Shown here piece after piece: positions 1-58,879 of a stretch of 64,000 nucleotides of DNA. Origin of the DNA: Octopus sinensis (taxonomy: Eukaryota); contig NC_043006.1 of assembly GCF_006345805.1 (NCBI RefSeq), forward strand, positions 95,914,001-95,978,000. Direction: 5' to 3'. A program made the position numbers and the translations under genes. How positions within the stretch are numbered: position 1 is the stretch's first letter; each line of letters opens with the position of its first letter. The notes under the pieces were generated by a model. The model was given only the letters and a program-made list of their open reading frames with translations. It did no database searches and had not been told where the DNA came from.

Positions 1-498
1 TCTCAAATAACCTTAGCATTTGATTTTTCGATGTCCTTACCCCCACACTTTTGTGAGTTGAATTAAGCAAACACTATATATGAGAGAGATTTTCTTTAAG
101 TATTAGAAATAGCTTTTAAAAAAGTTTTTTAGCTGCTATTTCTAATGAGTTCAGTATGCGGCAAAGTAATTTATTTTACTAAGCCCTTTTATATAATGTA
201 TAATTTGAATTCGCCTTGAATGGTCCCTTTGCATACTGAACACTTGGTGAAATTGATTAATAATTAATTAATTTTGCCCTCAATTGTTGAAATTATAATT
301 AATCTCCCTCTGATTAATCTTCGGATTTTACCGAAATAAGCATAGTGTTTGATGTTTTTAACCCACGCTGGTGGAAAGGGGAGAACAGAGATTCTTCGCT
401 TGCTTATTTGAATTTGTTGATACTGAGTTACGAGCAGATCTTCGAAAGGGTATGTTCTTATTTTCATTTGTGTTTCCAAATCCAAACCAAGGAATTTC

Positions 499-551
499 TG
501 AGCTGATGATAGAAGTGTTGTTTTTGACTAATCTTGAAATGTACGTTCTCA
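499..551 (+). ncRNA. Type I hammerhead ribozyme motif, array copy 1
   Basis: Stem I TGAG/CTCA, CTGATGA core (503-509), weak stem II AGA-AGT/ACT-aa-TCT, GAAA (536-539), stem III ATGTACGT (C>T versus other copies), GUU triplet. Confidence 0.65.
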
Positions 552-1047
552 ATAACCTTAGCATTTGATTGATTTTTTCGATGTCCTTACCCCCAAACTT
601 TTGTGAGTTGAATTAAGCAAACAATATATGAGAGAGATTTTCTTTAAGTATTAAAAATAGCTTTTAAAAAAGTTTTTTAGCTGCTATTTCTAATGAGTTC
701 AGTATGCGGCAAAGTAATTTATTTTACTAAGCCCTTTTATATAATGTAATAATTTGAATTCGCCTTGAATGGTCCCTTTGCATACTGAACACTTGGTGAA
801 ATTGATTAATAATTAATTAATTTTGCCCTCAATTGTTGAAATTATAATTAATCTCCCTCTGATTAATGCTTCGGATTTTTTACCGAAATAAGCATAGTGT
901 TTGATGTTTTTAACCACGCTGGTGGAAAGGGAGGAGACAGAGATTCTTCGCTTGCTTATTTGAATTTGTTGATACTGTTAGTTACGAGCAGATCTTCGAA
1001 AGGGTATGTTCTTATTTTCAGTGTTTCAAATCCAAACCAAGGAATTC

Positions 1048-1099
1048 TGAGCTGATGATAGAGTGTTGTTTTGGACTAATCTTGAAACGTACGTTCTCA
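1048..1099 (+). ncRNA. Type I hammerhead ribozyme motif, array copy 2
   Basis: TGAG-CTGATGA...GAA-ACGTACGT-T-CTCA; palindromic stem III. Confidence 0.7.
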
Positions 1100-1592
1100 A
1101 ATAACCTTAGCATTTGATTTTTCGATGTCCTTACCCCCAAACTTTTGTGAGTTGAATTAAGCAAACACTATATATGAGAGAGATTTTCTTTAAGTATTAG
1201 AAATAGCTTTTAAAACAGTTTTTTAGCTGCTATTTCTAATGAGTTCAGTATGCGGCAAAGTAATTTATTTTACTAAGCCTTTTATATAATGTAATAATTT
1301 GAATTCGCCTTGAATGGTCCCTTTGCATACTGAACACTGGTGAAATTGATTAATAATTAATTAATTTTGCCCTCAATTGTTGAAATTATAATTAATCTCC
1401 CTCTGATTAATGCTTCGGATTTTACCGAAATAAGCATAGTGTTTGATGTTTTTAACCACGCTGCTGGAGGAAAGGGGAGAACAGAGATTCTTCGCTTGCT
1501 TATTTGAATTTGTTGATACTGTTAGTTACGAGCAGATCTTCGAAAGGGTATGTTCTTATTTTCAGTGTTTCCAAATCCAAACCAGGAATTTC

Positions 1593-1648
1593 TGAGCTGA
1601 TGATGATAGAAGTGTTGTTTTTGACTAATCTTGAAACGTACGTTCTCA
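1593..1648 (+). ncRNA. Type I hammerhead ribozyme motif, array copy 3
   Basis: Same motif with an extra TGA after the core. Confidence 0.65.
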
Positions 1649-2140
1649 AATAACCTTAGCATTTGATTTTTCGATGTCCTTACCCCCAAACTTTTGTGAG
1701 TTGAATTAAGCAAACACTATATATGAGAGAGATTTTCTTTAAGTATTAGAAATAGCTTTTAAAAAAGTTTTTTAGCTGCTATTTCTAATGAGTTCAGTAT
1801 GCGGCAAAGTAATTTATTTTACTAAGCCCTTTTATATAATGTAATAATTTGAATTCGCCTTGAATGGTCCCTTTGCATACTGAACACTTGGTGAAATTGA
1901 TTAATAATTAATTAATTTTGCCCTCAATTGTTGAAATTATAATTAATCTCCCTCTGATTAATGCTTCGGATTTTACCGAAATAAGCATAGTGTTTGATGT
2001 TTTTAACCACGCTGGTGGAAAGGGGAGAACAGAGATTCTTCGCTTGCTTATTTGAATTTGTTGATACTGTTAGTTACGAGCAGATCTTCGAAAGGGATGT
2101 TCTTATTTTCAGTGTTTCCAAATCCAAACCAAGGAATTTC

Positions 2141-2193
2141 TGAGCTGATGATAGAAGTGTTGTTTTTGACTAATCTTGAAACGTACGTTCTCA
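2141..2193 (+). ncRNA. Type I hammerhead ribozyme motif, array copy 4
   Basis: TGAG CTGATGA TAGAAGTGTTGTTTTTGACTAATCTT GAAACGTACGTT CTCA (consensus form). Confidence 0.72.
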
Positions 2194-2688
2194 AATAACC
2201 TTAGCATTTGATTTTTCGATGTCCTTACCCCCAAACTTTTGTGAGTTGAATTAAGCAAACACTATATATGAGAGAGATTTTCTTTAAGTATTAGAAATAG
2301 CTTTTAAAAAAGTTTTTTAGCTGCTATTTCTAATGAGTTCAGTATGCGGCAAAGTAATTTATTTTACTAAGCCCTTTTATATAATGTAATAATTTGAATT
2401 CGCCTTGAATGGTCCCTTTGCATACTGAACACTTGGTGAAATTGATTAATAATTAATTAATTTTGCCCTCAATTGTTGAAATTATAATTAATCTCCCTCT
2501 GATTAATGCTTCGGATTTTACCGAAATAAGCATAGTGTTTGATGTTTTTAACCCACGCTGGTGGAAAGGGGAGAACAGAGATTCTTCGCTTGCTTATTTG
2601 AATTGTTGATACTGTTAGTTACGAGCAGATCTTCGAAAGGGTATGTTCTTATTTTCAGTGTGTTTCCAAATCCAAACCAAGGAATTTC

Positions 2689-2739
2689 TGAGCTGATGAT
2701 AGAAGTGTGTTTTTGACTAATCTTGAAACGTACGTTTCA
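2689..2739 (+). ncRNA. Type I hammerhead ribozyme motif, array copy 5
   Basis: Same motif; one C missing from the 3' strand of stem I. Confidence 0.6.
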
Positions 2740-3229
2740 AATAACCTTAGCATTTGATTTTTCGATGTCCTTACCCCCAAACTTTTGTGAGTTGAATAAG
2801 CAAACACTATATATGAGAGAGATTTTCTTTAAGTATTAGAAATAGCTTTTAAAACAGTTTTTTAGCTGCTATTTCTAATGAGTTCAGCATGCGGCAAAGT
2901 AATTTATTTTACTAGCCCTTTTATATATGTAATAATTTGAATTCGCCTTGAATGGTCCCTTTGCATACTGAACACTTGGTGAAATTGATTAATAATTAAT
3001 AATTTTGCCCTCAATTGTTGAAATTATAATTAATCTCCCTCTGATTAATGCTTCGGATTTTACCGAAATAAGCATAGTGTTTGATGTTTTTAACCCACGC
3101 GCTGGTGGAAAGGGGAGAACAGAGATTCTTCGCTTGCTTATTTGAATTGTTGATACTGTTAGTTACGAGCAGATCTTCGAAAGGGTATGTTCTATTTTCA
3201 GTGTTTCCAAATCCAAACCAAGGAATTTC

Positions 3230-3282
3230 TGAGCTGATGATAGAATGTTTGTTTTTGACTAATCTTGAAACGTACGTTCTCA
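3230..3282 (+). ncRNA. Type I hammerhead ribozyme motif, array copy 6
   Basis: Same motif; TGAG/CTCA, CTGATGA and GAAACGTACGTT intact. Confidence 0.7.
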
Positions 3283-3725
3283 AATAACCTTAGCATTTGA
3301 TTTTTCGATGTCCTTACCCCCAAACTTTTGTGAGTTGAATTAAGCAAACACTATATATGAGAGAGATTTTCTTTAAGTATTAGAAATAGCTTTTAAAAAA
3401 GTTTTTTAGCTGCTATTTCTAATGAGTTCAGTATGCGGCAAAGTAATTTATTTTACTAAGCCCTTTTATATAATGTAATAATTTGAATTCGCCTTGAATG
3501 GTCCCTTTGCATACTGAACACTTGGTGAAATTGATTAATAATTAATTAATTTTGCCCTCAATTGTTGAAATATATATATATATATATATAAGTTCAGCAA
3601 GATTTAGATTCAGATGAATATGGTACTTAAGTTAGATGCACCAGAATTTTGAATGGTGTTATGTATATAAATCCATGGGGTGATTATAAGCAAAAATAAG
3701 CAACAAGAATAACTCGGTAATTTGG

Positions 3726-3808
3726 TAAGATCTTTCGCTCTACGTCATTTTATTAAATATTGTAAGTATTACAACAGTTTTAAAATGTTGAGCAATCATT
3801 AGCTATTT
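3726..3808 (-). ncRNA. Decayed hammerhead-like motif at the 3' end of the minus-strand PLE
   Basis: Minus strand reads CTAATGA (core mutated), TT, then GCTC...GAGC closing a long hairpin, GAA, AGATCT palindrome. Stem I pairs poorly. Confidence 0.35.
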
Positions 3809-4879
3809 ATAGAGGTTTTCCATTAATACATAATTTTCATATCAATTGATGACATTATAGAGAAGGTAGATATATAGACAGAGATGTCGATTTAAATTTT
3901 AAGAACCATAAGGTAGTAGAGTTTATCTTCCGACTGAAGAATATACGTTAAGTTATTTTGAACTGCTAGAAGTTTGGAAATTATAATCAGTTGAAAGAAG
4001 ACAAAGACATTTTCTATTTATAGAAATAGGGGTGAAATAAATTTCAGACAGTGTTCATAAAGAAATTAAGGTAGAGAGGGGGTTGTAATGCCATAGAAGC
4101 TGTTTACTACTATTTTGCAAACAGATATTGTATTAGGAAAACTAGGTCAATGTCATATGGTCACAGTGACCACTTATATACCAAAACGTTATAGAGAATA
4201 CACAGATCCCTTTATACTTATAAACATCAGCTTTATACTTAGCTGGTAGCTGTTGAATATTTTTATACGTTGGATTAAAGGAGAAATTATAAATCTAATA
4301 TTTATTCATTTTGGAGACAAATCTATCACTTAATGAGTAGGCATAATACTCAAGAACTGAGGACAAACGTCTTATTAATCAAGTGAATATATTGGGGGTC
4401 AGATATGTATAATAGAAAAACTGGGAGAGGAGTAATCAAGAAGAATAATTTTCTTAGGTTTAGTAGAAGGTGATGTTTTTTATGAAGAGAAGTAATTAAG
4501 AAGAGTAAATTTCTCAGATTTAGTAGATAGTGAATTGTTATTATTGAATTAAAATATAGAATCTGTTAGACATAATATTTACTACTCGCGGAGAAAAGCT
4601 AATTAGTTAGGTAAAAATATCCTCGGTTAGTGATATATTAAGAAAAAGAAGTGAGGTAATCAAGGTGAACAGAGTAGTTTCTTTAGGGACATAGAATTTA
4701 TACTATTTAATATAGGAGATTATAAAAAAAAGAGAATTTAATTCTAAATATGCAATGAAGTTTTTTAGTAATCTATGCATGTTGAATTAAAAGCAAGTAT
4801 GGTATATTCATTCTTATTTAGTTATAAAGAATTAGAATTGGAAAAATTTAGGAATGGTCTCAATATTATTATCTAAAAT

Positions 4880-5520
4880 ATTTAAACGCACGGGTTGTGC
4901 GATGTATGCTAATTACTCCTAGTTCAGAACGGTTAACAGATTTGTATTATTCCTATGTTTTAAAATTTCATGTTTCCATAGAACAAAGTTCCCAACCATC
5001 TCTACTATTTTTATAAGGCCATCCTTTTTTTTACTATATCCCATTTCAGGTTAAATTCTATATATTATTCGTTTTCAGTTCCCAAATTTTACTAGACAAT
5101 GCTGTGCAACCTGCCTTGTGTTTAAGCCTAAAGGAGGAAAAATGATTGTTTAAACGTTTTTTTAAAATCTACCGAACAACCGAAATAAAGATAGTTGTTA
5201 TTTGAAGTCACTATTGTACATTTATAAATTACATTTTGGACCAAACAGCGGCCAGATACCGGACATTTCGATCTAATCTTACAATTACAACTGGGGGGAT
5301 TATTCCTGGTATTATTTATGGACAATTCGTTTACATTTCCGTTACTCGAGTTGTTATTAGTATTAGTATTATTTCCTCTAATAGTATGTATATTGTTATG
5401 TAAACTGGGGTTACTAGTTATTAATCTATTCTCACTATGTTCACCTACTACATTTTTATCTATACTACCTATATTATTGATGTTGTTATTATCACTATTT
5501 ATATCAATTTTGTTATTCTT
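4880..5520 (-). pseudogene. Penelope-like element GIY-YIG endonuclease region (frameshifted)
   Basis: CNCKIRSKCPVSGRCLVQNVIYKC...YLYFG...FKK, then TALSSKIWELK...LKWDIV...ELCSME in an adjacent frame. This is the Cys-rich linker plus GIY-YIG typical of PLEs. Confidence 0.8.
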
Positions 5521-5692: not shown

Positions 5693-6393
5693 TACAGTAG
5701 TTTTATTTTTATAGCGTGCTTTCACTTCACTACCGAGCGCAGCTCTGTGTGCCTTGGGTATGTGCTGTGATTTGTTGTGATGCTCTGATGGTTATTGTAT
5801 GGAAAGTGTTCTGCGTAGGATGTGTGCAGTGCCTAGTAGTGCAATTTTCTGTATGTTATATGTGTTTGTAAGTCCTGGTGTTTTTGTTATGTATTTGTCT
5901 GAATATTTTTTTATCATGCCTAATGCACCTACTATGATAGGAATTGTTTCTGTTTTCAAGTTCAACATTCTAGTTACCTCTATTTCCAGGTCTTTGTATT
6001 TTGAGAGTTTCTCCATTTCTTTTAGAGACACGTTGTCATCTGCCGGTATTGATACATCAATTAGAAAGCATTTTTTTTCTTCATGATCTCTGACAACTAT
6101 ATCTGGTCTGTTGGCCTTAATTTCTCTATCTGTGTGTATCGGCATATCCCAGAGTATGGTTGCTTTCTCGTTTTCTGTGACCTTTTCTGGTGTGTGCCTA
6201 TACCATCTTTTTTCTGTTGTTATTCCATAATGTTGGCATAGCTTCCAATGTATGTAGGTTCCAACTTTGTCATGTCTGTGAATATATTCCTTCTTAGCCA
6301 GGACTGGGCAGCTAGAGATAATATGATTTATTGTTTCTTGTCCATCTCCACATATTCTGCAGTTACTTGTAATATTTCTTTTCATTACATGTT
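5693..6393 (-). mobile_element. 5'-truncated R4/Dong-type non-LTR retrotransposon (CCHC finger + restriction-like endonuclease), copy A
   Basis: CRIC..ETINHIISSC, RHD, RPDIVV..LIDVSIP..KLSKYKDL motifs; flanked by (TAA)n on both sides. Confidence 0.88.
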
Positions 6394-6467
6394 TTATTAT
6401 TATTATTATTATTATTATTATCATTAGCATTATCAGTATTATCATTCTTCTTCTTATTATTATTATT

Positions 6468-7868
6468 CTATGTTTGACTTTTGCTTTATATTTGTACAAG
6501 TTGGCTCGAAGTCTCACCCAGAGACCTCAAGAGACAACAGGTTGGAAGTTCATATTGTTGTTATGCCTAGTGTGCCATATATTTGGGGGGGTTGGTGTTG
6601 TACTAATGAATGTCTAAACAAATTTTTTTTTTTTTTTTAAACCGAAAAGTATGTTTGTTTTAAACCTTGAGATTACATAGAAAGTATTTTGCGTAGGATA
6701 TGAGCAGTTCCCATGAGCACTATCTTTTGAATTTCTGCCATTTTGTGGTTTCCTGGTATCAGAGTTAGGTAGCTATCAGCCCCTTTTGCTATCATTCCCA
6801 GGGCACCTATGACAACAGGTATTGTTTTAGTCTTCAGGTTCCACATTTTGCTGATTTCTATTTCAAGATTTTTATATTTGCTCAGTTTTTGGTAGGTCTT
6901 GACAGATACGTTTATATCGATTGGGACAGTCATATCAATGAGGAGGCATGTTCTTTTTCTGAAGTCTTTCAATATGGTGTCTGGCCTATTTGCATCTATC
7001 TTTCTGTCAGTTCGAATGGTGAAGTTCCAGAGGAGTGAGATGTGGTCAATTTCAAGCACTGGGGGTGGTTTGTGTTCCCACCAGTTTTTTTCATGGGGCA
7101 AATCCAGGTTTTTGCAGATTACCCAGTGAATACATTGTGCAGCTCTATCGTGTCTTTTGAGATACTCTGTAGGCGCTAGAAGACTGCACTTGGAGACAAC
7201 ATGGTCAATGGTTTCATTTTGTTGCTGGCATACACGACACGTTGGACTGCTTCTGATCTTTAATATGTTGGCCTGGTAGTTTCTTGTTGGTAGGCATTGA
7301 TCTTGAGCTGCTATGATAAACCCCTCTGTTTCAGATTTTAAGCCAGAGGCCATTAGCCATTGATGGGTCAGGGCTTTGTCAACATCTGCATTATTTGCTC
7401 CCTTTGGGTATTTGCCATAGAGAGGTTTTTCTTGCCATTTATCATTCAGAATATCTAAGGCCGCAGATTTAGCACGGGTTTTCATGCGCTTAGCTTTTTC
7501 TGTGCATGTTTCTTGTATGTCTATCTCTAATTCCGAAATTTGTTGTATTCGGAATTCACTTAGATATTCCTTTGCCTGTTTTGTTACTGAGTATGATGCT
7601 TTCTTGTTTTCATGTTTTGAGACAAGTTTTAACATCCAGTCCTCAGAGTTTTTCAGGTAGGTGTCTAGGCCAATTGTAGCAATCTTCATTATTATTGCCA
7701 GTTGTAAAAGTCCACGGCCTCCCTCTTTTCTTGGCAGATAAAGTCGTTCTGTATCTGCCTTAGGGTGGTGCATTCTATGCATTGTCAACAGTTTTCGTAT
7801 TTTTCTGTCAAGATTACATATTTCAGGAATTAACCAGATAACGATATTGAAACGGTAAGTCACAACTT
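6468..7868 (-). mobile_element. 5'-truncated R4/Dong-type non-LTR retrotransposon, copy B (different subfamily)
   Basis: 396-aa ORF 6673-7863: LDRKIRKLL..RLYLPRKEGGRGL, AAQDQCLPTRNY, CRVC..ETIDHVVSKC, RHD, RPD..LID..KY; bounded by (TAA)n. Confidence 0.9.
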
Positions 7869-13888: not shown

Positions 13889-16815
13889 TAGAGGGTGAGC
13901 TAGTTAAGAAGCTAGAAGAGGCAATTAGAAGCGGCATCGCATCCGACGTTTTGGCCGAGGTTGGCCCTCGACCAACACTTCAACGCCAAACACGAAGGAT
14001 GTGCTGTCAGAGCTAGGATCGTGCTCTAAGAACGAAGGTGTTGGAGCCGCGAGAGAGGCCCGGGTGGCAGAGGCGCAACAGGGCAACAAAGCCAACATTC
14101 GGTCACTGTAGATGAACAGGGCGCGAATGCTCGAACCAAGTAAAATGTGTGAGGCCTTTCAGCAGCATTTTGCCCGACTGTTCGGGACGAGTGGAGGACA
14201 AGAACGTAGGGTAGACTTCAGTGCCTACCTACATAGCCTGCCACGACTCTCGACAAGAAAGGCGGGTGCTGCGAAGGTGCCATCACGGCGGCGGAAGTGC
14301 GGGAAGCGATGGCAGAATGCTCGAGGGACAAATCACCGGGTTTGGATGGTCTACCCTACGAATTTTACTATTGTATGCCAGACTTGTTTGGAGACGTCTT
14401 GGCAGCGGTATACTGCAACTGGCAGCAAAACGGGAGCATACCCGGTTTTGTGAGTCGAGGAGCTGTAACTCTGCTGAAGAAAGATCCAAACAAGGGAAAC
14501 ATTATAGAAAACTTAGCCAATCACTCTGCTCAATGCAGACCTGAAAATTTTGACAAAGGTGTTAGCCAAGAGGTTGGCGCTTGTCATGGAGAAACTGGTC
14601 GACAACGCACAAACGTGCGCCGTGCCGGGCCGGAGCATCCATGACAACCTCCATCTGATGCGTTACATCATAGACAGAGGTAGTTAACGAACCTGGCATG
14701 GGTGGGGCCCTGATCAACTTGGATCAATCGAAAGCCTTTGATAGGGTAGACCATCGATACTTGGAGGCAGTCCTGAGAGCGGCTGGTTTCGGTCCCGTCT
14801 TCCGCGGCTGGATAGCTGCCTTGTACAGGGGCATCCGTTCGGTAATTCGCGTGAATGGACATCTATCGAGACCCTTCGACATTGCACGTTCGGTCCGTCA
14901 GGGATGCCCCCTCTCGGCGCTTCTATACGTATTGACTCTTGAGCCACTACTGCGGAAGCTGGCGACTCTGAGGGGCATCCCGCGAGAATTAGGATGCGGG
15001 ACGAGAGTGTGTCTGCATACGCGGACGACGTCACCGTCATAGTGTCAAGCCACGAGCACATCGAGCGGGTCGGCGAGACACTGAAAGACTACGAAGCGGT
15101 GACAGGAGCAAAAATCAACGGGAAAAGTCAGTGGGCTTGCGGCTCGGCACCTGGAGAAGCAAGCCATGCCGTCCACCAGTACCTCCGTCGTGGGACGCTG
15201 GACAGACGGCCCGGTTGAGTTGCTCGGGGTCTGGTTCGGTCCGGACCTCCAAATGGAGAAGAACTGGAACGAGATAACGAGTAGGGTGGTCACTCTCGCC
15301 CAGCAATGGGCCGAGAGGAAACTGTCCCTAAAAGGTCGGGCGGAGGTGGTGGAACGCGTACATCGCGTCCATATCTACTACCGCCTGACCGTCGTACCTT
15401 GTCCCGACCCTACCATCACCAAACTAGAAACGCATCCTCTCCGCTTCTTGTGGAAAGGATGCGTCCCGATGGTCAGGCGATCCATTTGCTGTCAACACCC
15501 GTTAAAAGGAGGGCTGGGCATGCCGTGGTTGATGATGCGCAGACACGCGCTGAGACTGCGACATCTCCGGCTCTATGTAGACGACGGTGAACAGGTGTGG
15601 TCGCCGTTTGTGAGGCACATTCCCGCAACTCGTCTCCATGACCGAAACTACAGTCGTGGATCAAAAGAGGCCGAAGAAGGGCGAATGGCACCGCGAGTGT
15701 CGCGTTGCTCTCAAGCAAACTCTGCCGTCCCGGGTCGACTTGAGTGACTTCAACACAACCAAAGCATTCTATAGGGATTAGTGGAGGGGAGGGTACGACG
15801 ACGAGCTCGGGGCAAACCTGGGCGTCGACGAGAATACCTGACCCGCCTGTTTCAAACGACTTTCGGCCCGGGACCTATGGACCACTTCCAGAGATCCCTG
15901 GCCTGGCCGGTGCTACCGAGAAGCGCTACCGTTCGGGATAAGCTCTATAGGCATGGCTCGAGAAACACGGGGCCGACCTGCCGAGATGCGGGCAGAGCGA
16001 CGAAACCGCTCTGCACGCAATCGTGCAGTGTCCAGCATTTCCCACCTGTGGGCTTATGTCGAACGACTGCTGTCACGTGTGGGACGTGTCGGTTTATCAG
16101 CCGAGTCTATCGTTAATATCGTCACGCCTCCTTCCTTCAACGGGAAGGAAGAGCTATTTTATCATTACTTGTGGCTATGGCGAAAGAATGTATCTGGTGG
16201 ACGCGGTCTGAAAGGATTAGAGACACAACACTTTCCTCTCTGGTCAATCTCTCATCAACTTCTTCAAGTATCACTGAAGAAAAAAGTGAGAGTAGAGAGG
16301 CAAGTTTTGTCTAGTGAATGTTTTAAAAAAAGATGGGTTGAATGTAGCAAAGATGGACGTTATGAATGACGAAGACACCTTGACTATGATTCTATGAACC
16401 GTAAAAATTAATACAGAGAGTTGCTTATTGCAAAAAAAAAAAAAAGAAATATAACTGTGACTTCATTGACGAGGTACCGTGGTCTTTTCCGTAGGCTTTT
16501 CTTTCCACGGCTAAACCTCACCTGTCCTCCCCTTTCAATTCATATTGAAATTTCTGTGATAACGATCCTATTGATCAATTTTTTTTCCTCTCCCCCTTTT
16601 TTTTACCCCCCCCCTTTTTGGTCCTCCTTCTCCCTTTACGATCCCTTTTGATCGACCCCCCCTTTTTTATTTTTTTTATTCGTTATTTTATTATTATTTT
16701 TTTTTAATTATTTATTTTATTTTATTTTATTTATTTTTTTAAACCTTCAAAAGAAAAGCTCTACCTTTGTAATTGTTCTATCTGTGTGCAGCCCTGTGTG
16801 GCTAATAAAGAAACA
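13889..16815 (+). mobile_element. L1/Tx1-clade LINE, ORF2 reverse transcriptase to 3' end, many frameshifts
   Basis: KSPGLDGLPYEFY, LDQSKAFDRVDH, VRQGCPLS, AYADDV (~15015), LSLKGR, GGLGMP, C-terminal Cys/His region; ends AATAAAG then (ATCT)n. Confidence 0.9.
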
Positions 16816-17633: not shown

Positions 17634-18908
17634 CAGGGTGAGGAAGCAAAATTTACAATGAACGTTAAGTTGCTTTTTCTCAGGAGGCACTAAGTCAATT
17701 GCTTTGAAACCTAGCATATACTGATGTCATACTCATACCTAACACTATTATCCTTACCTTTTCAGAAACTTTTGCCAATATGAGTAATCAGGAAAGCAAA
17801 CATCAAAGAGTGTGTGATTTGCTGAATGCACTCGTCACACCAAAGGAGATTTCAAGGATAGTTGGAGTGTCCATAAAGACTGTTTATAATGTAAAGAATA
17901 GAATGACTAGGAGCAAAACTATTACGGGGAAGTCTGGAAGTAGAGGAATCAACAAAAAACGTACCAAAGATTTTATTAAAGCTCTCAAATCCAAAGTCCT
18001 AAAGGATCCAACCAAATCCATGAGAAAAATGGCAATTGAACTTGAGGTAGACAAGAAGACCATTAGAAATGCAGTAAAATATGATTTGAGGTTAAAATCT
18101 TACTCAAGAACACCAAAACATTTGTTGACAACAGCTATGAAGGAAAAGAGATTGGAGAGGTACAAGAAAATTATTACATGGTTCAAGAAAAAGTCCTCCA
18201 TTGTAACGATCTTTTCAGATGAAAAGATCTTCACAGTCGATGCTGTTCTGAACAGCAGAAATGACAGATTTATTGCAAAATCAACAGCTGAGGTTAAGGG
18301 GACATTCAAAATAAAACATTCTGCACAAGTTATGGCTTTTGGTGTTGTGGCTTCCAATGGAAAGAAAATGTCTATAAAATTCTACAAAGCTGATGAAAAG
18401 ATCAATGTTAATACTTACTACAAGACTCTGAGATATCAGGTATTGCCATGGCTTAAAGCAAACTACCCAGATGGGAATTATGTATGGACACAGGATGGTA
18501 CTCAAGCCCACACAGCCAGAAAAATACAAGATTTCTGCAAATCCAACTTTAGCGATTTTGGGGAATCATGTTTATGGCCGCCTTCTAGCCAAGATCTAAA
18601 CCCTCTGGATTATGCTATTTGGGGCGTTTTAGAACATGCTACCAATAGAACATCACACATCAATGTCGACTCTCTTAAAGATACTATTACAGAAGAATGG
18701 GAGAAGTTGTCTCCCGAATAATTGAGGAACACTTGTACAAGTTTCAGGAAGTTATTGAGAATGAAGGAGGACACAGAATAAAAACATTTTCTATTATGTA
18801 AATTTTCTTGCGGCAAATAAATTCTCATGACTTTCAATAAAATAATTGGTCATACACTGTCTTTCAATCCCTGCCTCAAAATATTGTAAATTTTGCTTCC
18901 TCACCCTG
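17634..18908 (+). mobile_element. Tc1/mariner superfamily transposon, maT (DD37D) family, full length
   Basis: Perfect 26-bp TIR CAGGGTGAGGAAGCAAAATTTACAAT (17634-17659 / 18883-18908) with TA on both sides. Confidence 0.95.
17780..18721 (+). CDS. DD37D (maT) transposase, 313 aa, probably truncated by a late premature stop
   Basis: HTH-like N-terminus, FSDEK, QDG..AH, WPPSSQDLNPLDY. I counted 37 residues between the 2nd and 3rd Asp. Transposase-like sequence continues after the TAA. Confidence 0.88.
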   Translation: MSNQESKHQRVCDLLNALVTPKEISRIVGVSIKTVYNVKNRMTRSKTITGKSGSRGINKKRTKDFIKALKSKVLKDPTKSMRKMAIELEVDKKTIRNAVKYDLRLKSYSRTPKHLLTTAMKEKRLERYKKIITWFKKKSSIVTIFSDEKIFTVDAVLNSRNDRFIAKSTAEVKGTFKIKHSAQVMAFGVVASNGKKMSIKFYKADEKINVNTYYKTLRYQVLPWLKANYPDGNYVWTQDGTQAHTARKIQDFCKSNFSDFGESCLWPPSSQDLNPLDYAIWGVLEHATNRTSHINVDSLKDTITEEWEKLSPE

Positions 18909-23790: not shown

Positions 23791-24295
23791 AGAGATATAA
23801 ATGAAATTAATATAAGATACAAAGAAATTTTCACAAGATAGCTCAGACGAATAGCAGTTAGTTAGGAAGTGATACACCGGATTACCAAATATTTCAGTTT
23901 ATTGAATTTAGAGGTTAGAAGCAAATATAATGAGAATCCGAATCGAAGCGGCCACTGACATAATGTAACATATCACTCAAATAATATTTAAAGATTTGAA
24001 TAATATCTAAATGAGACACGTATGCTTTATTGCGTTATAAAGTATGGATGAATAGGAACTAAGAAGTATTATTCGGAGCCTGTTACGGCACTAGTTTATT
24101 AGATAAAAATGTGTTTTTGCTATAATACAAAACTTTCACTTTGAGTTCTCCAGACTTGCTAAAGATGTTATGAATAGCTTTACGAGAACATATTAGCAAT
24201 GAGATAATGGGAGAACGGGGAGGAGTAGAAGATGTGATCGCAGAACAGCGAACGTTCTGGACATGTCACGAAGTCGACAGACATGAGGAGGTCCC

Positions 24296-25350
24296 ATGCC
24301 GTTGCGGATTGTTATTCAAAATCAAAAATTAAACGATGCATGCGCATTGCTAGAAATTTGGAGACGACATGATGTACTGCTTGGCATTAGCGCTGGAAGC
24401 TCCAATAGGAACATTTCAGAATGTTCGTATGTCAATTTGAGGACAGTGCAGAGAATTCGGAAAGAGTTCGATGAGTTTAATGGTGATTACAAAGGTAGGC
24501 CAGCTCGGAGAACTCACTCTGATCGTTCTGATAAGAAAAGAACTCTTCTTGAATTTGTTGATGAAATCCAGGCCATGTTTGACAATGATCCCTCCAATAC
24601 AATCAAGTCCATAGCCAGGAACATGGGAGTGTCTGAGTTTCTTATCAAGCAAGTAGTGCATGAAGACATTTGGTATTCCGCTTACAAGATGAGAAAGGGC
24701 CAATTTTTATCACCAAGCTATCGAGGACAAGAGAAAAGACCGCGCTACGAAGATTTTGAACAAACTCAAGCATCCCCTCCAAATTAAAATACTTTGGTTC
24801 TTCTCAGACGAGAAACGTTTCAGCCAGGATAAGATGGTGAACACACAGAACAAACGTTGGCTTGCCGTGTCCCCAAAACTTGTGCCCAAAGTGATAAAAA
24901 TCAAACATCCAGTCAACATCATGGTGTTTAGAGGGATCACTAGTGAGGGCAACGTTATGCCTGTATTCATCTTCCAACCTGGCCTCAGACTCAACACGGA
25001 GGCCTACATCAAATGCCTCTGACTGCAACCTCCTTGATTATTATGTGTGGGGCGCAGTTGAGAGAGAGACCGACGAAACTCCTTCTAACACCAAAGATGA
25101 GGTGAAGGCAAGGATTATGGCAAGAGACGGCCAAGAAGAGTTGCAGGAGATTCCGAAGTCATTTGGAGGCCCTGGCGATTTTATAGAGTAAATAGCAATT
25201 ATATAGAATAAATGGCGATTTTATAGAATAAATTTACACTTTAGTATTTCAAGATATTTTTATGTAATTTTAGTAACGTGTTAAAATGAGATATCGGTGT
25301 TATTTTCATTTTTGCGTAAATTAGATGACAATTTAATTACTGCACCCTAT
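24296..25350 (+). pseudogene. Decayed maT-like (DD37D-type) transposase
   Basis: RTVQRIRKE, WFFSDEK, KHPVNIMVF, DCNLLDYYVWG across three frames; TIR-like ACTGCACCCTATA end. Confidence 0.8.
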
Positions 25351-42589: not shown

Positions 42590-44795
42590 AACTTAATAGC
42601 ACCACCTGATAGGATTATTCGAATCCTGTTTAAGTCAAGTTTTGTTCAAGTAGTGAGTTCTTGTTGGGTGAGATGTATCCAATAATGGGTGGCTTATCTG
42701 GTATTCTTTGAAGGAATCTATCCAGACTCCGTTTAAAGTTGATGGGATCCTTTTCCTCTTTGATCTCCCTCGAGACAATGTTAAATAGGGCAGAGCCTGT
42801 TGAGGAAAAGAAATTATGTTGCAGTGTACATGTATGTTGTGATCTTGAATTGGGCAGGGGACGTATGGCCCGTGGTCCCAGTCTTGGATGAACCTTGAAG
42901 CTAATGTTAAGGTCGTTTGGGCAAAGTTGGCGGTATATTCTCCACATCGTACAAATGATGTACCGCTCACGGCGACGCTGGAGGAAGGAAAGTTTCAAGG
43001 CTTTAAGGCGATCCCAATAATTGAGAGCAGCCATGCCTTCAATTCGTTTAGTGAGTGCCCTCTGGGGTGACTCAATTCTGGAGATGTTTTGTCTTGTATG
43101 GGGAGACCACAGTGAGCAGCAGTATTCAAGGTGTGGCCGTATAAAGGAGGAAAATAGTTGTATGATGGCACCTTGTTCTCTGGACCGGAAAGTTCTTAAG
43201 ATCCAGGAACTCATCCTACGAGCTATATCGACCTTCTTGTTGATGTGTGCACTCCAACTGAGATCGTCATCAACAATTACACCCAGGTCTCTGATATTGT
43301 TAGAGGCTGTGAGCGGTTCCCCTGAAGGAAGAGAGTATGGTTGTTTTAGTGAGGAATTTCTTCCAAAATGCATCAGCTCAAATTTTTCCTCATTCAGTTG
43401 CATTTTGTTTCTGTCTGCCCATTGACTCACAGCATATAGATCAGACTGGAGTTGAGTTCGGTCTGCTTCTTCATTGACGATTTGCTGGAGCTTAGTGCCA
43501 TCAGCAAAAATGTTCACTTTGCAGTAATGTACAACACTGGAAAGGTCGTTTATGTAAATTATGAAGAGTAGCGGACCCAAAACAGTCCCCTGGGGAACAC
43601 CGTTGGGGACTTTTGCTGGGCTTGAGTGGACTCCATCAACTACAACATGTTGTGTTCTATTCGCCAGGAAATACTTAATCCAGTGTAGAACTTTTTCCAC
43701 GGATTCCAACATTATCCAATTTTGAGAGTAGGATGTTATGGTCTACCCTGTCGAACGATTTACTGAAGTCAAGATATAAGACGTCAGAGTTCGAACCTGT
43801 TCCCAAGGCTTTGAGTACATCTTCAATGTGGTGTAAGAGCTGTGTTAGACAGTCCCTGCCACAGCGAAAGCCATGCTGATTTGCATTTAGGAGTTTGTGG
43901 GTCTCCAGGAGGTCAGCTATCCTTGATCTTAACACTCTTTCAAACACTTTAATGATGTGGGAGGTGAGATTGGGCGATAGTTGACTGCGAGGGATCTGTT
44001 TGCCTGTTTGAAAACCGGGATGACCGACTGGGATAGAAACTGTTTCGGTATATAACCTGCGTCTAACGAATTTCTCCAGAGGTTGGTCAGAGGAACTGCA
44101 AGTTGGTGTCTACATTCTTTCAGGAGACTAGCAGGGAATCTACCAGGGCCTAAAGCACAGTAATATTTGACCTCATTTATTGCTGCTACGATGTCAGTGG
44201 CAGTGAAGGTTATGTCTAAGTTTTTGTGTTGGGAGTCAACTTCGTTCGTTTCTCTTACGTCAATATCAGTGTGAACACTAAAGACAGAGCAGTATTGTTT
44301 CTGCAGTATTTCTGCCATTTCTTTAGCATCGTGTTGGGGAATGCCGTTATCATCAATCAATGGCCCAATGGGTGAGACAGTGGTTCTATGCTTATTTGCA
44401 TAAGAATATAACACTTTTGGGTTCTGTTTGATGTTTTTGATTACCCACTGTTCCTCCACAGCTCTTTGATTTTCAATGGAGGTTTTCATGTTGGTCTGCA
44501 GATGAGGTTTTTCCAGCTCTAGTCTTTTCATTGTTATGAATGTGGATGTTGTGTGTGGGAATATTTTAATTGGTTGAATTTTTTGTTGAGTCTTTTGATG
44601 CGCCTGATGAGTGTTTTTTTTCTTTTTAGGGAGCCGGTTTCTGTTTGTGTTAGTAGATTTCGTGAGAGCGTGTTTAGAGCATGTATAGGTGACAATGTTT
44701 TCAAAGTGCTGCCACGCGTCTCAATATGAGAGGAATTGAGAGTAAAAGACCAGTCGATGGAAGACAGATCCTTTCTGATTGCTCCCCAGTCCGCT
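42590..44795 (-). mobile_element. CR1/L2/Jockey-group LINE, 5'-truncated, disrupted RT ORF
   Basis: NYRPIS, QHGFR..C.TQLL, YLDFSKSFDRVDH, GVPQGTVLGPLLFIIYINDL, FADGTK (YxDD box mutated), RDLGV, RPHLEYC. Confidence 0.92.
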
Positions 44796-49449: not shown

Positions 49450-50737
49450 CGAGGGGCGTTCAATAAGTAATGCCCCTGACCCACTTCCCATAGTAGTAGA
49501 GCAACGAAACTTGGCACAGTTATTAGTTTTTTTCTACATAGGAACCACCCAGAGTTACGCATTTCTCCCATCGTTTGATGCAGCTCTGAAGACCATTTTC
49601 GTAGAAGAACCCAGCTTGGTCCTCCAACCTGAACGTGACTTCAGAAATCAAGGCTGCATCATCTGGGAAACGCTTTCCTTTTAAAAACAATTTCATGATT
49701 GGGAAGAGGTGAAAATCAGAGGGTGCAAGGTCAGGAAAGTAGGGGGGATGGGGAGAAGTTCATAGCCATACGCCTGTGCTTCTGATCTGGCGACAAGCGA
49801 GTTGTGGACCGGAGCGTTGTCCTGCAGGAGGAGGATGCCTTTGCTGATCTTGCCCCGCCTCTTGATTTTGATAACTTCTCTTAATTTCCTCAAAAGTGAA
49901 ACATAATAGGCTCCTGCAATTGTGGTACCCTTTGCCAGGAAATCTGTCATCACTACTCTGTCCTGGTCCCAGAAGACTGTGAGCATGACCTTGCCAGCGG
50001 AGGGCTGCACCCTTGCCTTCTTTGGAGGGGGTGAGTCACGGTGCTTCCACTGCATTGACTGGGCTTTGGTCTCTGGATCATCGTGATGGACCCAGGTTTC
50101 ATCCTGTGTAATCAATCTTTTGAAAAATTTTGACTCATTTTCTTGGCACATCTCCAAATTCACCCTCGAGCTTTCGACGCGTTCTTGCTTCTGGAAAGGC
50201 GTGAGCAACCTGGGAATCCATCTGGCAGACACCTTTTGCATATGCAAATGGTCATGAATGATAGTTTCCACAGACCCGGTACTAATCTTGACCTCATGAG
50301 CTATTTGGCGAATAATTATGCGTCGATCTTCCAAAATGGCAGCCTCAACTTGGACAGATGCCTCATCAATGGCAGAAGGGGGCGACCAGATCTGGGAGCT
50401 GTTTCCACAGAGTTCCGACCATGTTTGAATTCACGATGCCAGCGTTTTACAAGGTCATATGATGGGGCATCATCACCATAAGTTACTTTCATTTCATCAA
50501 AAGTTTCCCGTGGTGTGCGTCCTTTCAAATACAAAAACCGGATCACTGCTCGACACTCAACAGGCTCCATTTCACACTTGACTCGGTTCAAACACCTGTA
50601 AATCAGAAACCACAATTAATTCAGAGCTGTAATTTGCCACTTACTCTATAGAGATATAAATGATTGCACATACAAAATTTCAGCTAGATCAAACAACTGC
50701 AAGTGGGTCAGAGGCATTACTTATTGAACGTCCCTCG
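49450..50737 (-). mobile_element. Full-length mariner (DD34D) element with frameshifted transposase
   Basis: ~37-bp near-perfect TIRs CGAGGG(G/A)CGTTCAATAAGTAATGCC.CTGACCCACTT with TA flanks. CRAVIRFL, WIPRLL, TQDETW, QDNAPVH, PDLAPSDFHLF, KRWEKCV...YVEK motifs. Confidence 0.95.
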
Positions 50738-56279: not shown

Positions 56280-57597
56280 AGAGTAGATCGTATACGCGTG
56301 GGTATATATTTGTAAAAAAGAAGTTTGAAAACGCCACTATATTGGATAAATTTTAATTTTCTTATGAATTTTACATCTTTCGGTTCTTGAAAGAACGAAC
56401 CTTATCAAAAATATTATAAAAAGTGTAATGGAGAATAAAAGTGTAATGGAGAAGTTCATAATCGTTTCTAACTGGTCTCAATAGAATCCATGTTCTTGAA
56501 AAAACGAACCTTATCAAAAATATTATACAAAATGAAAATTGAAAAGTTCATAATCGTTTCTTAGTGTTCTCAATAGAATCCATGTGGTGGTGGTTTGTCG
56601 GTAGTTGGTATAATCACTATATTCCTGTTGAGTGTATTGAAGAAGTCCATTATTGTTTCTTGCTGGTATTAAAAGGAACCGCTTTTTTGTTACCTTGTGT
56701 TCCAATGGTAGCAACAGTAGTGATTGTTGGTCGTAGTAGTTGATCGTAATTTTGGTAACCTTGGTGGTGGATGGGGTTAGTAGTAGAAGACTGTTGATCG
56801 TAGCAGCAAAAGTGGTGGGTTCACTGGCACTGTTCACTGACGTCACATAATTCCAAACCAATCAAAACCAAACTTCAACGAATACAAGGTAAAGACCCCC
56901 AACTGTATCCTGTAAGGAAACCAACCAAGTAGAACGACAAGCTTGACCACGAAAGAAAGACGTCATCAATTTCTTAACGAATCAAAATCAGTTCTGACCC
57001 ATAACTGTATCCTGTAAGGAAACCAACCAAGAACGACAAGCTTGACCACGGAAGAAAAACGTCATCAATTTTTAACGAATCAAAATCAGATCTGCTCGCA
57101 GAAAAAATTTTTCTTCATAAATTCATTTTTCCCTAAAACATACCACTGCAAGCGGGAGTGACTGTTTAAAGATCTGAGAAATTGTAATTCCACAATTGTA
57201 ATTGTGGTAGAATTTCATTTTTCCTTTTCGGAAGACCAATGTTTTGTTTTAATATTCCTGGCCCAGGGTGTTCAAACTTGGTCTAAACTTTTTGATGAAA
57301 TAAAGTTCTTTATTTTGGCGTTGGGTGAAGGTTACGCTCTCACTGAATTTGTAAAGTGGGTAAGTTGTAAATTTCGGATTTTCATTTGTAGCACATCTAT
57401 CTATGTGTCCGCTGACCGGTATTTTCCAGTATTCAGGGTTTCTAATTTGGGATTTATGCACCACCATCCTTTTACGTAAGCTATTTTTTGTATGGCCTAT
57501 ATACTGCCTATTGCAGCCTGCGCATGTTAAGACGTAAATTAAGTTTTCTGATGCACAGGTGAAGTTTGTTCTAATGGTGAAGTGATGGTCTTGCTTT
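56280..57597 (-). mobile_element. Penelope-like element 3' part: GIY-YIG endonuclease plus 3' UTR/pLTR
   Basis: FTCASENLIYVLTCAGCNRQYIGHTKNSLRKRMVVHKSQI..HIDRC..KELYFIKKFRPSLN. Internal duplications 56902-56990/57003-57089 and near 56385-56580. Confidence 0.88.
56368..56412 (-). ncRNA. Minimal hammerhead, U3-A8 core variant
   Basis: ATTT TTGATAA GGTTC..GAACC GAAAGATGTA AAAT. Confidence 0.6.
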
Positions 57598-58879
57598 ATA
57601 TATATATAAAATATAAATGAGAGATAAAACCATCATTATGCAACTGAAACAGACATAAACCAATACATAAATAACTAAAATGAAATAAAAATTCATTTAT
57701 CTGCTGCTAAAATGCTTATACATCTTTGGGAACACGCTTTATATGTCAGCACATGTATATACAAATGTAGATACTTCCATGGGGGAATTCAACTCGTGGT
57801 CGTGTTAGACCACTTCCTAAACCCACTAAATCAATGTAATTGTTTCAGGAGTCCAAGAAGTTTCTATTCGCGAAATAGTATTGAGTGGATAAAGTGTTGT
57901 ACAACACTGGACCAACTTTTCGGCGCAAACATCTATAACACAGGTGGCACAACAGAGGTGGAGGCGACGTGGAACCGGGTGCACTTCAGGAATTTTTATA
58001 CGAGTTTACCTTCTCCTAGAAAGAAGAACTAGAAGGTCCTTCATTCTCAGTGGGTCATATACTAGTTGATCCATATCTGCGACTCTGACAGAAGCTGCTA
58101 CTCGAGGTCAGAGTAGACCGGGAACAACAGTGGTTAAGAGATGACTCCACACTCCTCGAAAACCTGGGACTTCCGGATCGGGACCCTACAAGCGGATACA
58201 TTTTAAACTCACACCCAGGGACACTGTGTATACATACACAGATGTATACATACACACATACATGCAGACAGACAGACAGACAGGCATGCATGAAAGCCTA
58301 TATACATACATAAACACACACATTCAGACACACACATACACAGATACAGAAAGATAGATGTACAGACATGAATACATACATACATAAGTTCATACATTCA
58401 TACACACGCATACATTTATACACACACATGCAAAAACATGCAAACAGACTAACATACAAGCATGCATGCATGTATACATACATAAACACATACATTTATA
58501 CACACATACATATACAGACACACACACACATACATACATGATACATACACACAGCCACATATATACATACATATATACATACATAGAGAGATACTCTACA
58601 AGTTCTGGAGCAGACTGCCTTCGTCGTTGATGATATTGCAGATGGAGACAAAGCAGCCTCTATGAAAAAACCAACTGATTCATTGATCAAACGATTGGCC
58701 AACCGTTCACCTAGTCAATTACTTAACTAGTATTAGTAAAGAGAACTAAAATATAAGCATTGATTGTGTTTTATGGGATAAAAAATCTGAGAATCATTAA
58801 CGCACATCTATCTATGTTTTATATATATATATATATGTATGTATATATAGACACACACATATATATGCATATATATATA

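Follow-up and report, generated by a model that had tools for sequence, protein, structure and literature searches.

A hammerhead-bearing tandem repeat in Octopus sinensis as one arm of a dispersed, two-armed retrozyme insertion probably linked to Penelope-like elements

What kind of locus produces a tandem array in which every unit carries a hammerhead ribozyme motif? The question is raised by the start of a 64,000-nucleotide stretch of the Octopus sinensis genome (contig NC_043006.1, positions 95,914,001 to 95,978,000; hereafter the window), where a previous reading of the sequence alone (the sequence-only reading) saw an apparently local, satellite-like array and a candidate retrozyme. The array is instead the right arm of a mobile-element insertion that is larger than first reported and belongs to a family with about 2,000 dispersed insertions in the genome. 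The repeat is very probably a non-autonomous passenger of Penelope-like elements (PLEs).

Much of the original description of the array stands. Six full units (546, 548, 549, 545, 547 and 542 nt) are followed by a 292-nt partial unit, with a type I hammerhead motif at every junction, and the predicted cut sites were recovered exactly where they had been placed. The longest ATG-initiated open reading frame (ORF) of the unit, on either strand, encodes 48 amino acids, in line with the reported lack of a conserved ORF. A non-coding tandem unit a few hundred bp in length, with a GC content below 50% and neither a long terminal repeat (LTR) nor an ORF, is the sequence type of animal non-LTR retrozymes, as is the recurrence of the motif in at least two consecutive units, though here without an Rfam match. 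The monomer, previously thought unusually long, is ordinary, as reported families range from 51 to 972 bp (bioRxiv 10.64898/2026.07.22.740005).

Examination of the 10 kb upstream of the window shows that the array extends a further 4.5 kb in that direction, and that this extension includes an inverted arm. The left arm lies on the minus strand and comprises approximately 3.7 units, with its outer end near unit position 199, while the right arm comprises approximately 11.2 units and ends near unit position 293. The arms join head-to-head with a 3-nt overlap at a point some 2,520 nt upstream of the window, with (TA)n flanking both sides. Immediately before the window lie three units of only 90-97% identity that are rich in indels, and hence the exact unit number of the right arm is uncertain. 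The array itself is not a long-read artefact, because the unit occurs genome-wide and is present at very high depth in short-read contigs.

The dispersal of the repeat is evident from several genome-wide searches. A 121-nt hammerhead probe gave 930 candidates, of which the 40 that were scored contained 41 full-length matches and one partial match, all 100% identical. Exact-pattern searches for the junctions at arm ends recovered 1,838 long and 1,254 short ends, with none in the controls, and equivalent searches for the hammerhead found 1,983 canonical copies of this family (family A), 961 of a subfamily with a U4C change in the hammerhead core and 401 of a related family B, against 0-3 for reversed-pattern controls. 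From the 96 family A loci examined, 17 that had been picked mostly for having both ends were left out of the count of end types. The remaining 79 comprise 58 simple two-arm loci, 18 one-arm loci (some cut by the extracted stretch), two complex loci and one with distant arms; half of these were selected by a short end and the others by hammerhead matches, with a bias to multi-copy loci. The simple two-arm loci almost always have one short and one long end (52 of 58), there being one long-long, one short-short and four with an atypical end. The short end lies approximately 196 nt, and the long end approximately 293 nt, past the predicted cut site, thereby defining a tail of about 98 nt. Outer arm ends fall inside (TA)n in 110 of 116 cases, relative to a background of 8%; within such sequence target-site duplications are unreadable. 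The same geometry emerges from coordinate lists alone: in the first 123 Mb of contig C1, once one duplicate row had been dropped, 35 of 57 short ends face a long end head-to-head within 12 kb, with no instance of any other geometry.

These features are not those of a centromeric or local satellite, which would consist of a few long arrays expanded in place; these arrays are short and dispersed, with a median arm length of approximately 620 nt and a maximum of 6.1 kb. The divergence among units, in substitutions per site, is 0.0056 within an arm, 0.0054 between the arms of a locus and 0.050 between loci (leaving out four loci and, upstream of the window, the three poor units). As the divergence between arms is about that within arms, and well below that between loci, both arms come from one source. 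The explanation that the array is a satellite grown locally by unequal crossover from a solitary pseudo-LTR (pLTR), or an assembly artefact of long reads, can draw on the indel-rich units upstream and on the proposal of local amplification after insertion in a preprint (bioRxiv 10.64898/2026.07.22.740005). Against it stand the approximately 2,000 dispersed insertions with fixed ends, the similarity of the arms to one another and the short-read depth. It is largely refuted, and we regard it as scarcely credible.

The anatomy of the insertions points to PLEs. These elements form partial tandems with an inverted, 5'-truncated copy, may have a tail at either end and are biased to (TA)n targets (PMC8557442), while a PLE protein has been found to nick both strands of AT-rich DNA, with two internal start sites for reverse transcription bounding the tail (PMC11167929). 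The octopus repeat has both an inverted 5'-truncated arm with tandem units and two alternative ends downstream of the hammerhead. The suggestion of a non-autonomous, hammerhead-bearing retrozyme is upheld, with the two arms, the fixed tail and the (TA)n targets making the evidence for PLE involvement stronger than it was.

The helper probably belongs to the Hydra clade. This assignment follows from the insertion geometry and (TA)n target, because none of the sampled autonomous elements shared the sequence of the unit. The genome does contain intact Hydra-clade ORFs with a DKT motif, a CxCx5C linker and, at the C terminus, a GIY-YIG domain, although one family has an altered first linker motif; families with long open frames span 717-960 aa (L232-L248, L252-L271), and many have hammerheads with an extended stem II and a self-complementary stem III. 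In four of the Hydra families the elements terminate in (TA)n at either of two distances beyond the cut of their own hammerhead, about 70-135 nt apart (38-54/111-134, 36-37/107-110, 31-49/136-160 and 66-68/204 nt). Hydra-1_Obim is the only octopus Hydra family among the supplement rows examined of PMC8557442. A separate, broken Hydra-clade PLE in the window ends in the same (TA)n as the right end of the array, and exemplifies the likely helper clade as a candidate only. A two-ORF GIY-YIG family (479 aa and 781 aa, Neptune-like; L070-L081) is also young, with many near-identical copies ending in (TA)n; our pattern found no hammerhead of its own in it. L055 was rejected as a GIY-YIG partner, being a retrozyme nested in (TA)n beside a Neptune-like fragment, and L152, L156, L162, L169, L249 and L269 were similarly nested or adjacent cases.

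The distribution of inner arm ends bears on the template that was copied. Only 1 of 132 lies within 5 nt of the predicted cut site, where 2.6 would be expected, and the ends are evenly spread (7 of 73 loci, whose alignment failed, were skipped); the 148 arms contain at least 217 passages through the cut site. As the arms do not stop at the cut site, the template was continuous across it. Run-off copying of linear monomers with template jumping was rejected, as inner ends do not pile up there.

Such continuity would be expected if every insertion resulted from rolling-circle reverse transcription of a self-cleaved and ligated monomer circle. Each locus carries one haplotype, with 20 haplotypes among 31 loci, and 10 of 89 loci have a variant that every covering unit shares and that no other sampled locus shows; in 7 of the 10 it extends across both arms. 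Such variants are private within a sample of 96 loci out of about 2,000. These locus-wide fixed variants suggest occasional bottlenecks through a monomer, possibly a circle. The unit is also predicted to fold strongly as a circle (z about -5 in three families, 25 shuffles each), and circles have been demonstrated for coral, mussel and axolotl retrozymes (PMC7229834). However, of the 23 doubleton variants in 38 loci, 10, in six loci, occupy equal ranks in the two arms, counting from the outer end. Five are in L306 (G000:C1:75141600-75145700), three at rank 1 and two at rank 2, with one disrupting the GAAA box; of the five elsewhere, two adjoin a homopolymer and are weak, and L293, L294 and L279 provide less strong cases than L306. 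One monomer circle cannot place different rank-1 and rank-2 variants identically in both arms. At some loci, then, both arms were copied from a heterogeneous multimer, and pure rolling-circle copying is contradicted; as the sole route we judge it very improbable. The earlier proposal of rolling-circle reverse transcription by a PLE enzyme thus survives with respect to the enzyme, which is likely, and fails with respect to the circle as the only template. The simplest account is a mixed one, in which copying from multimeric transcripts is accompanied by occasional circles that reset the arrays and make them longer.

The ribozyme would retain a role in such an account. All six motif copies in the window keep both core boxes. 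Copy 4, the commonest form, has a 4-bp stem I, a self-complementary stem III, a GUU triplet and a two-segment stem II closed by U.U, features that had largely been recognised before; the extended stem II does not support the suggested likeness to the minimal PLE-type hammerhead. Four related families without ORFs (A-D, with units of 546-601 nt) have kept the hammerhead core: family B has a 566-nt unit, a GUA triplet and 416 of 574 alignment columns identical to A, while family C, found at two loci only, has a 601-nt unit, a GUC triplet and a long stem II. Families B and D have the same pair of ends as family A. In an alignment of nine sequences from all four families (mean identity 57%), the core is invariant, with position 7 and the cleavage-site base varying, and double changes are observed at 5 of 6 pairs in stem I and 3 of 4 in stem II; 91.5% of cells are paired, compared with 78% in shuffled and 28-39% in slid controls, figures that represent support rather than a probability, since the families are related and we assigned the structure ourselves. 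Because the core is invariant across four families and the stems covary, the motif is not a chance occurrence, which implies selection on the ribozyme, with cleavage as a prediction. The isolated 73-nt motif does not fold as a hammerhead (z = +0.66). A dimer is predicted at -18.4 kcal/mol. Families A, B and C all have a self-complementary stem III, with a predicted duplex energy of -11 to -13 kcal/mol; cleavage would be slow and probably dimeric.

A second conserved, covarying RNA domain is present in every unit. Its 31 predicted pairs are 95.7% paired, and the paired-cell count exceeds that of shuffles, whereas the four pairs with double changes do not. Because the short end site lies inside it and the long one just beyond its limit, this domain is a natural candidate for recognition by the reverse transcriptase.

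Taken together, these data can be accommodated by the following mechanism, which on balance we hold to be correct as a whole, with modest confidence. A borrowed PLE endonuclease and reverse transcriptase, probably of the Hydra clade, would insert a copy of the non-coding RNA. Its GIY-YIG protein would nick both strands of (TA)n, and the two 3' ends would each prime reverse transcription of a single shared RNA, from unit position ~196 in one case and ~293 in the other, guided by the conserved domain between the two start sites. Both enzymes would then run through the ribozyme junction over a variable distance, and the two cDNAs would be joined, mostly with an overlap of 0-8 nt. The template would be continuous over the cut site; for some insertions, at the least, it would be a multi-unit transcript left uncleaved. 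Now and then, slow and probably dimeric cleavage would yield monomer circles, which would return arrays to one haplotype and restore long arms.

Several points weigh against this mechanism, in addition to the limited sample within which fixed variants are private and the relatedness of the aligned hammerheads. An Rfam search of the motif, the check originally proposed, returned no hammerhead match at the gathering threshold nor at E<=10. The hammerhead fold forced on the monomer is unfavourable (+0.7 against a minimum free energy of -5.5 kcal/mol), and GUU is a slow-cleaving triplet. BLAST against PLE loci (sampled Hydra and Neptune-like) and a covariance-model search of 44 loci found no autonomous element sharing the sequence of the unit, matching only apparently separate retrozyme insertions; these searches covered a sample, the genome holding thousands of unscored candidate PLE loci. 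The majority of the doubleton variants (13 of 23) are not rank-matched, and at L306 the two innermost pieces share one variant, which fits fold-back or exchange between the arms at the centre. Furthermore, the U4C subfamily, with about half as many copies as the canonical form, accounts for every scored unit at 11 of 75 loci, in young, long and uniform arrays (for example L272, L313 and L326). Strong cleavage is therefore not needed for spread.

The success of the U4C subfamily and the rank-matched variants could also reflect a PLE passenger copied only from uncleaved multi-unit transcripts, with the hammerhead as baggage or acting at some other step, and with arrays lengthened or homogenised by DNA recombination or derived from long master arrays. 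Hammerhead mutations had no effect on insertion by the Poseidon element PAc in vitro, for which unprocessed RNA was the main substrate (PMC11167929), and only one of nine tested Xenopus retrozyme dimers was cleaved (bioRxiv 10.64898/2026.07.22.740005). However, this account leaves the conservation and covariation of the ribozyme across four ORF-less families, which indicate selection, as well as the locus-specific haplotypes and the variants fixed over both arms, to be explained otherwise; 5'-truncating copying alone should, by our reasoning, shrink arrays over the generations; and U4C, despite lower activity in vitro, still supports viroid infectivity (PMC3088659). We consider it possible but rather unlikely. 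The mixed mechanism also has a more specific form, in which the arrays are a genomic record of PLE integration by a dimeric Hydra-clade enzyme with two starts on one multimer or circle, at sites set by the conserved folded domain, the U4C subfamily being a cheater cut in trans through the self-complementary stem III. This combination is put forward as a tentative idea, unlikely to hold in every part.

The octopus is known for heavy adenosine-to-inosine (A-to-I) editing, and double-stranded RNA could plausibly arise from the long palindromes. None of the sequencing runs that contain the unit is registered as RNA; contigs from runs guessed to be RNA (a presumed run type, contigs only) cover it. 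A>G and T>C account for 101 of 176 changed places in three runs from organism A, 38 of 95 in two from organism B and 24 of 72 in two DNA-like runs; these counts, which leave out run X13 (7 places), come from different organisms without matched DNA and are evidence in neither direction. Single contigs of runs X1 and X2 show runs of A>G relative to window positions 1645-2736, two of which are missing, or almost so, from deep DNA-like runs; such runs of changes, likewise without matched DNA, would fit editing of palindromic RNA. A test for edited circles, in which fixed private variants would be expected to be mostly A>G, was uninformative (3 A>G and 2 T>C of 10).

The remainder of the window contains fragments of other mobile elements, listed with the features of the insertion in Table 1.

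Table 1. Positions of the two-armed insertion, its components and other features (window coordinates unless a contig or locus is named)
Feature	Position	Strand	Remarks
Whole two-armed insertion, ~8.1 kb	about G000:C10:95909467-95917570		arms head-to-head, inside (TA)n
Distal 6.5 units of right arm	1..3570	+	part of two-armed insertion
Type I hammerhead motif, copy 1	499..551	+	C>T in stem III; predicted cut after 547
Hammerhead motif, copy 2	1048..1099	+	predicted cut after 1095
Hammerhead motif, copy 3	1593..1648	+	TGA, 3-nt duplication after core; predicted cut after 1644
One repeat unit, predicted cut to predicted cut	1645..2189	+	545 nt, without ORF; numbering yardstick
Conserved RNA domain, unit positions ~145-285	1789..1930	+	in every unit; candidate recognition element for reverse transcriptase
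Hammerhead motif, copy 4	2141..2193	+	commonest form; predicted cut after 2189
Hammerhead motif, copy 5	2689..2739	+	one stem I base missing; predicted cut after 2736
Hammerhead motif, copy 6	3230..3282	+	predicted cut after 3278
Long-type arm end (unit position ~293)	3560..3570	+	joined to (TA)n
(TA)n target microsatellite	3571..3590	.	
Broken 5'-truncated Hydra-clade PLE	3591..5331	-	CxCx5C linker and GIY-YIG remnant, 3' untranslated region, pLTR end
LINE-type retrotransposon ORF fragments	5792-7866, 14237-16369, 42630-44720		judged by eye
Tc1/mariner-type transposase fragments	17708-18721, 24287-24787, 49693-50430		17708-18721: matches 85-89% identical, named from Octopus bimaculoides
Neptune-like-family GIY-YIG fragment	57249-57632	-	
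Examples of families B, C and D	L111:1556-2121 (566-nt span), L169:7043-7643 (601-nt span), L173-L201		

The route by which PLEs form tandem and inverted insertions, the role of their hammerheads and the use of retrozyme circles as transposition templates are described as open questions (PMC8557442, PMC11167929, PMC7229834). The short unit and the thousands of young insertions of the octopus family provide statistical power beyond that of full-length PLEs, through the fixed start sites, the pairing of short and long ends, the lack of stops at the cut site, the shared haplotypes and the rank-matched variants. The family is thus a convenient test case for how head-to-head arrays arise. It speaks for retrozyme arrays arising during insertion, not through local expansion afterwards, and moderates the pure rolling-circle model; for reconstitution it provides a defined RNA domain as well as intact candidate enzymes. 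If the arrays are a record of PLE integration in the specific sense above, they would be the first direct footprint to connect PLE enzymes with retrozyme circles, and pLTR tandems in general would be accounted for. A literature search found no paper on octopus retrozymes or two-armed retrozyme arrays, which may nevertheless be held in supplements, subscription papers or repeat databases.

PLEs have already been proposed as the helpers of retrozymes (PMC7229834; bioRxiv 10.64898/2026.07.22.740005), so that both the class and the PLE link are known, and it is the insertion anatomy of the octopus variant that is unusually informative. In common with the animal non-LTR retrozymes described in those two sources, it forms ORF-less tandems of low GC content with one type I hammerhead per unit, has a unit within the reported size range and co-occurs with PLEs. 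It differs in having dispersed arrays built as palindromes of two arms, whose asymmetric ends are fixed and lie in (TA)n (the term 'inverted' is absent from the main text of PMC7229834 and appears in the preprint only in the title of a reference), and in the genomic evidence for multimer templates. With Hydra-clade PLEs (PMC8557442) it shares (TA)n targets, a hammerhead upstream of the ends, an inverted 5'-truncated arm, two alternative ends and a self-complementary stem III; by contrast, it lacks an ORF, has no sequence match to any sampled Hydra family and reaches 11 full tandem units per arm, where Hydra PLEs form partial tandems. The resemblance to Poseidon PAc of Anolis (PMC11167929) lies in the two internal starts downstream of the hammerhead that define a tail, and in the use of an uncleaved RNA template, although the octopus tail is approximately 98 nt rather than 30-40 bp, the element is non-autonomous and the rule of a short and a long end for each insertion is nearly strict. 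Finally, the self-complementary stem III and weak monomer resemble those of the dimeric hammerheads of newt and axolotl and of repeat-type insect ribozymes (PMC7229834, PMC3088659), from which family A, itself predicted to fold as a dimer, is distinguished by its extended, two-segment stem II with a U.U closing pair.

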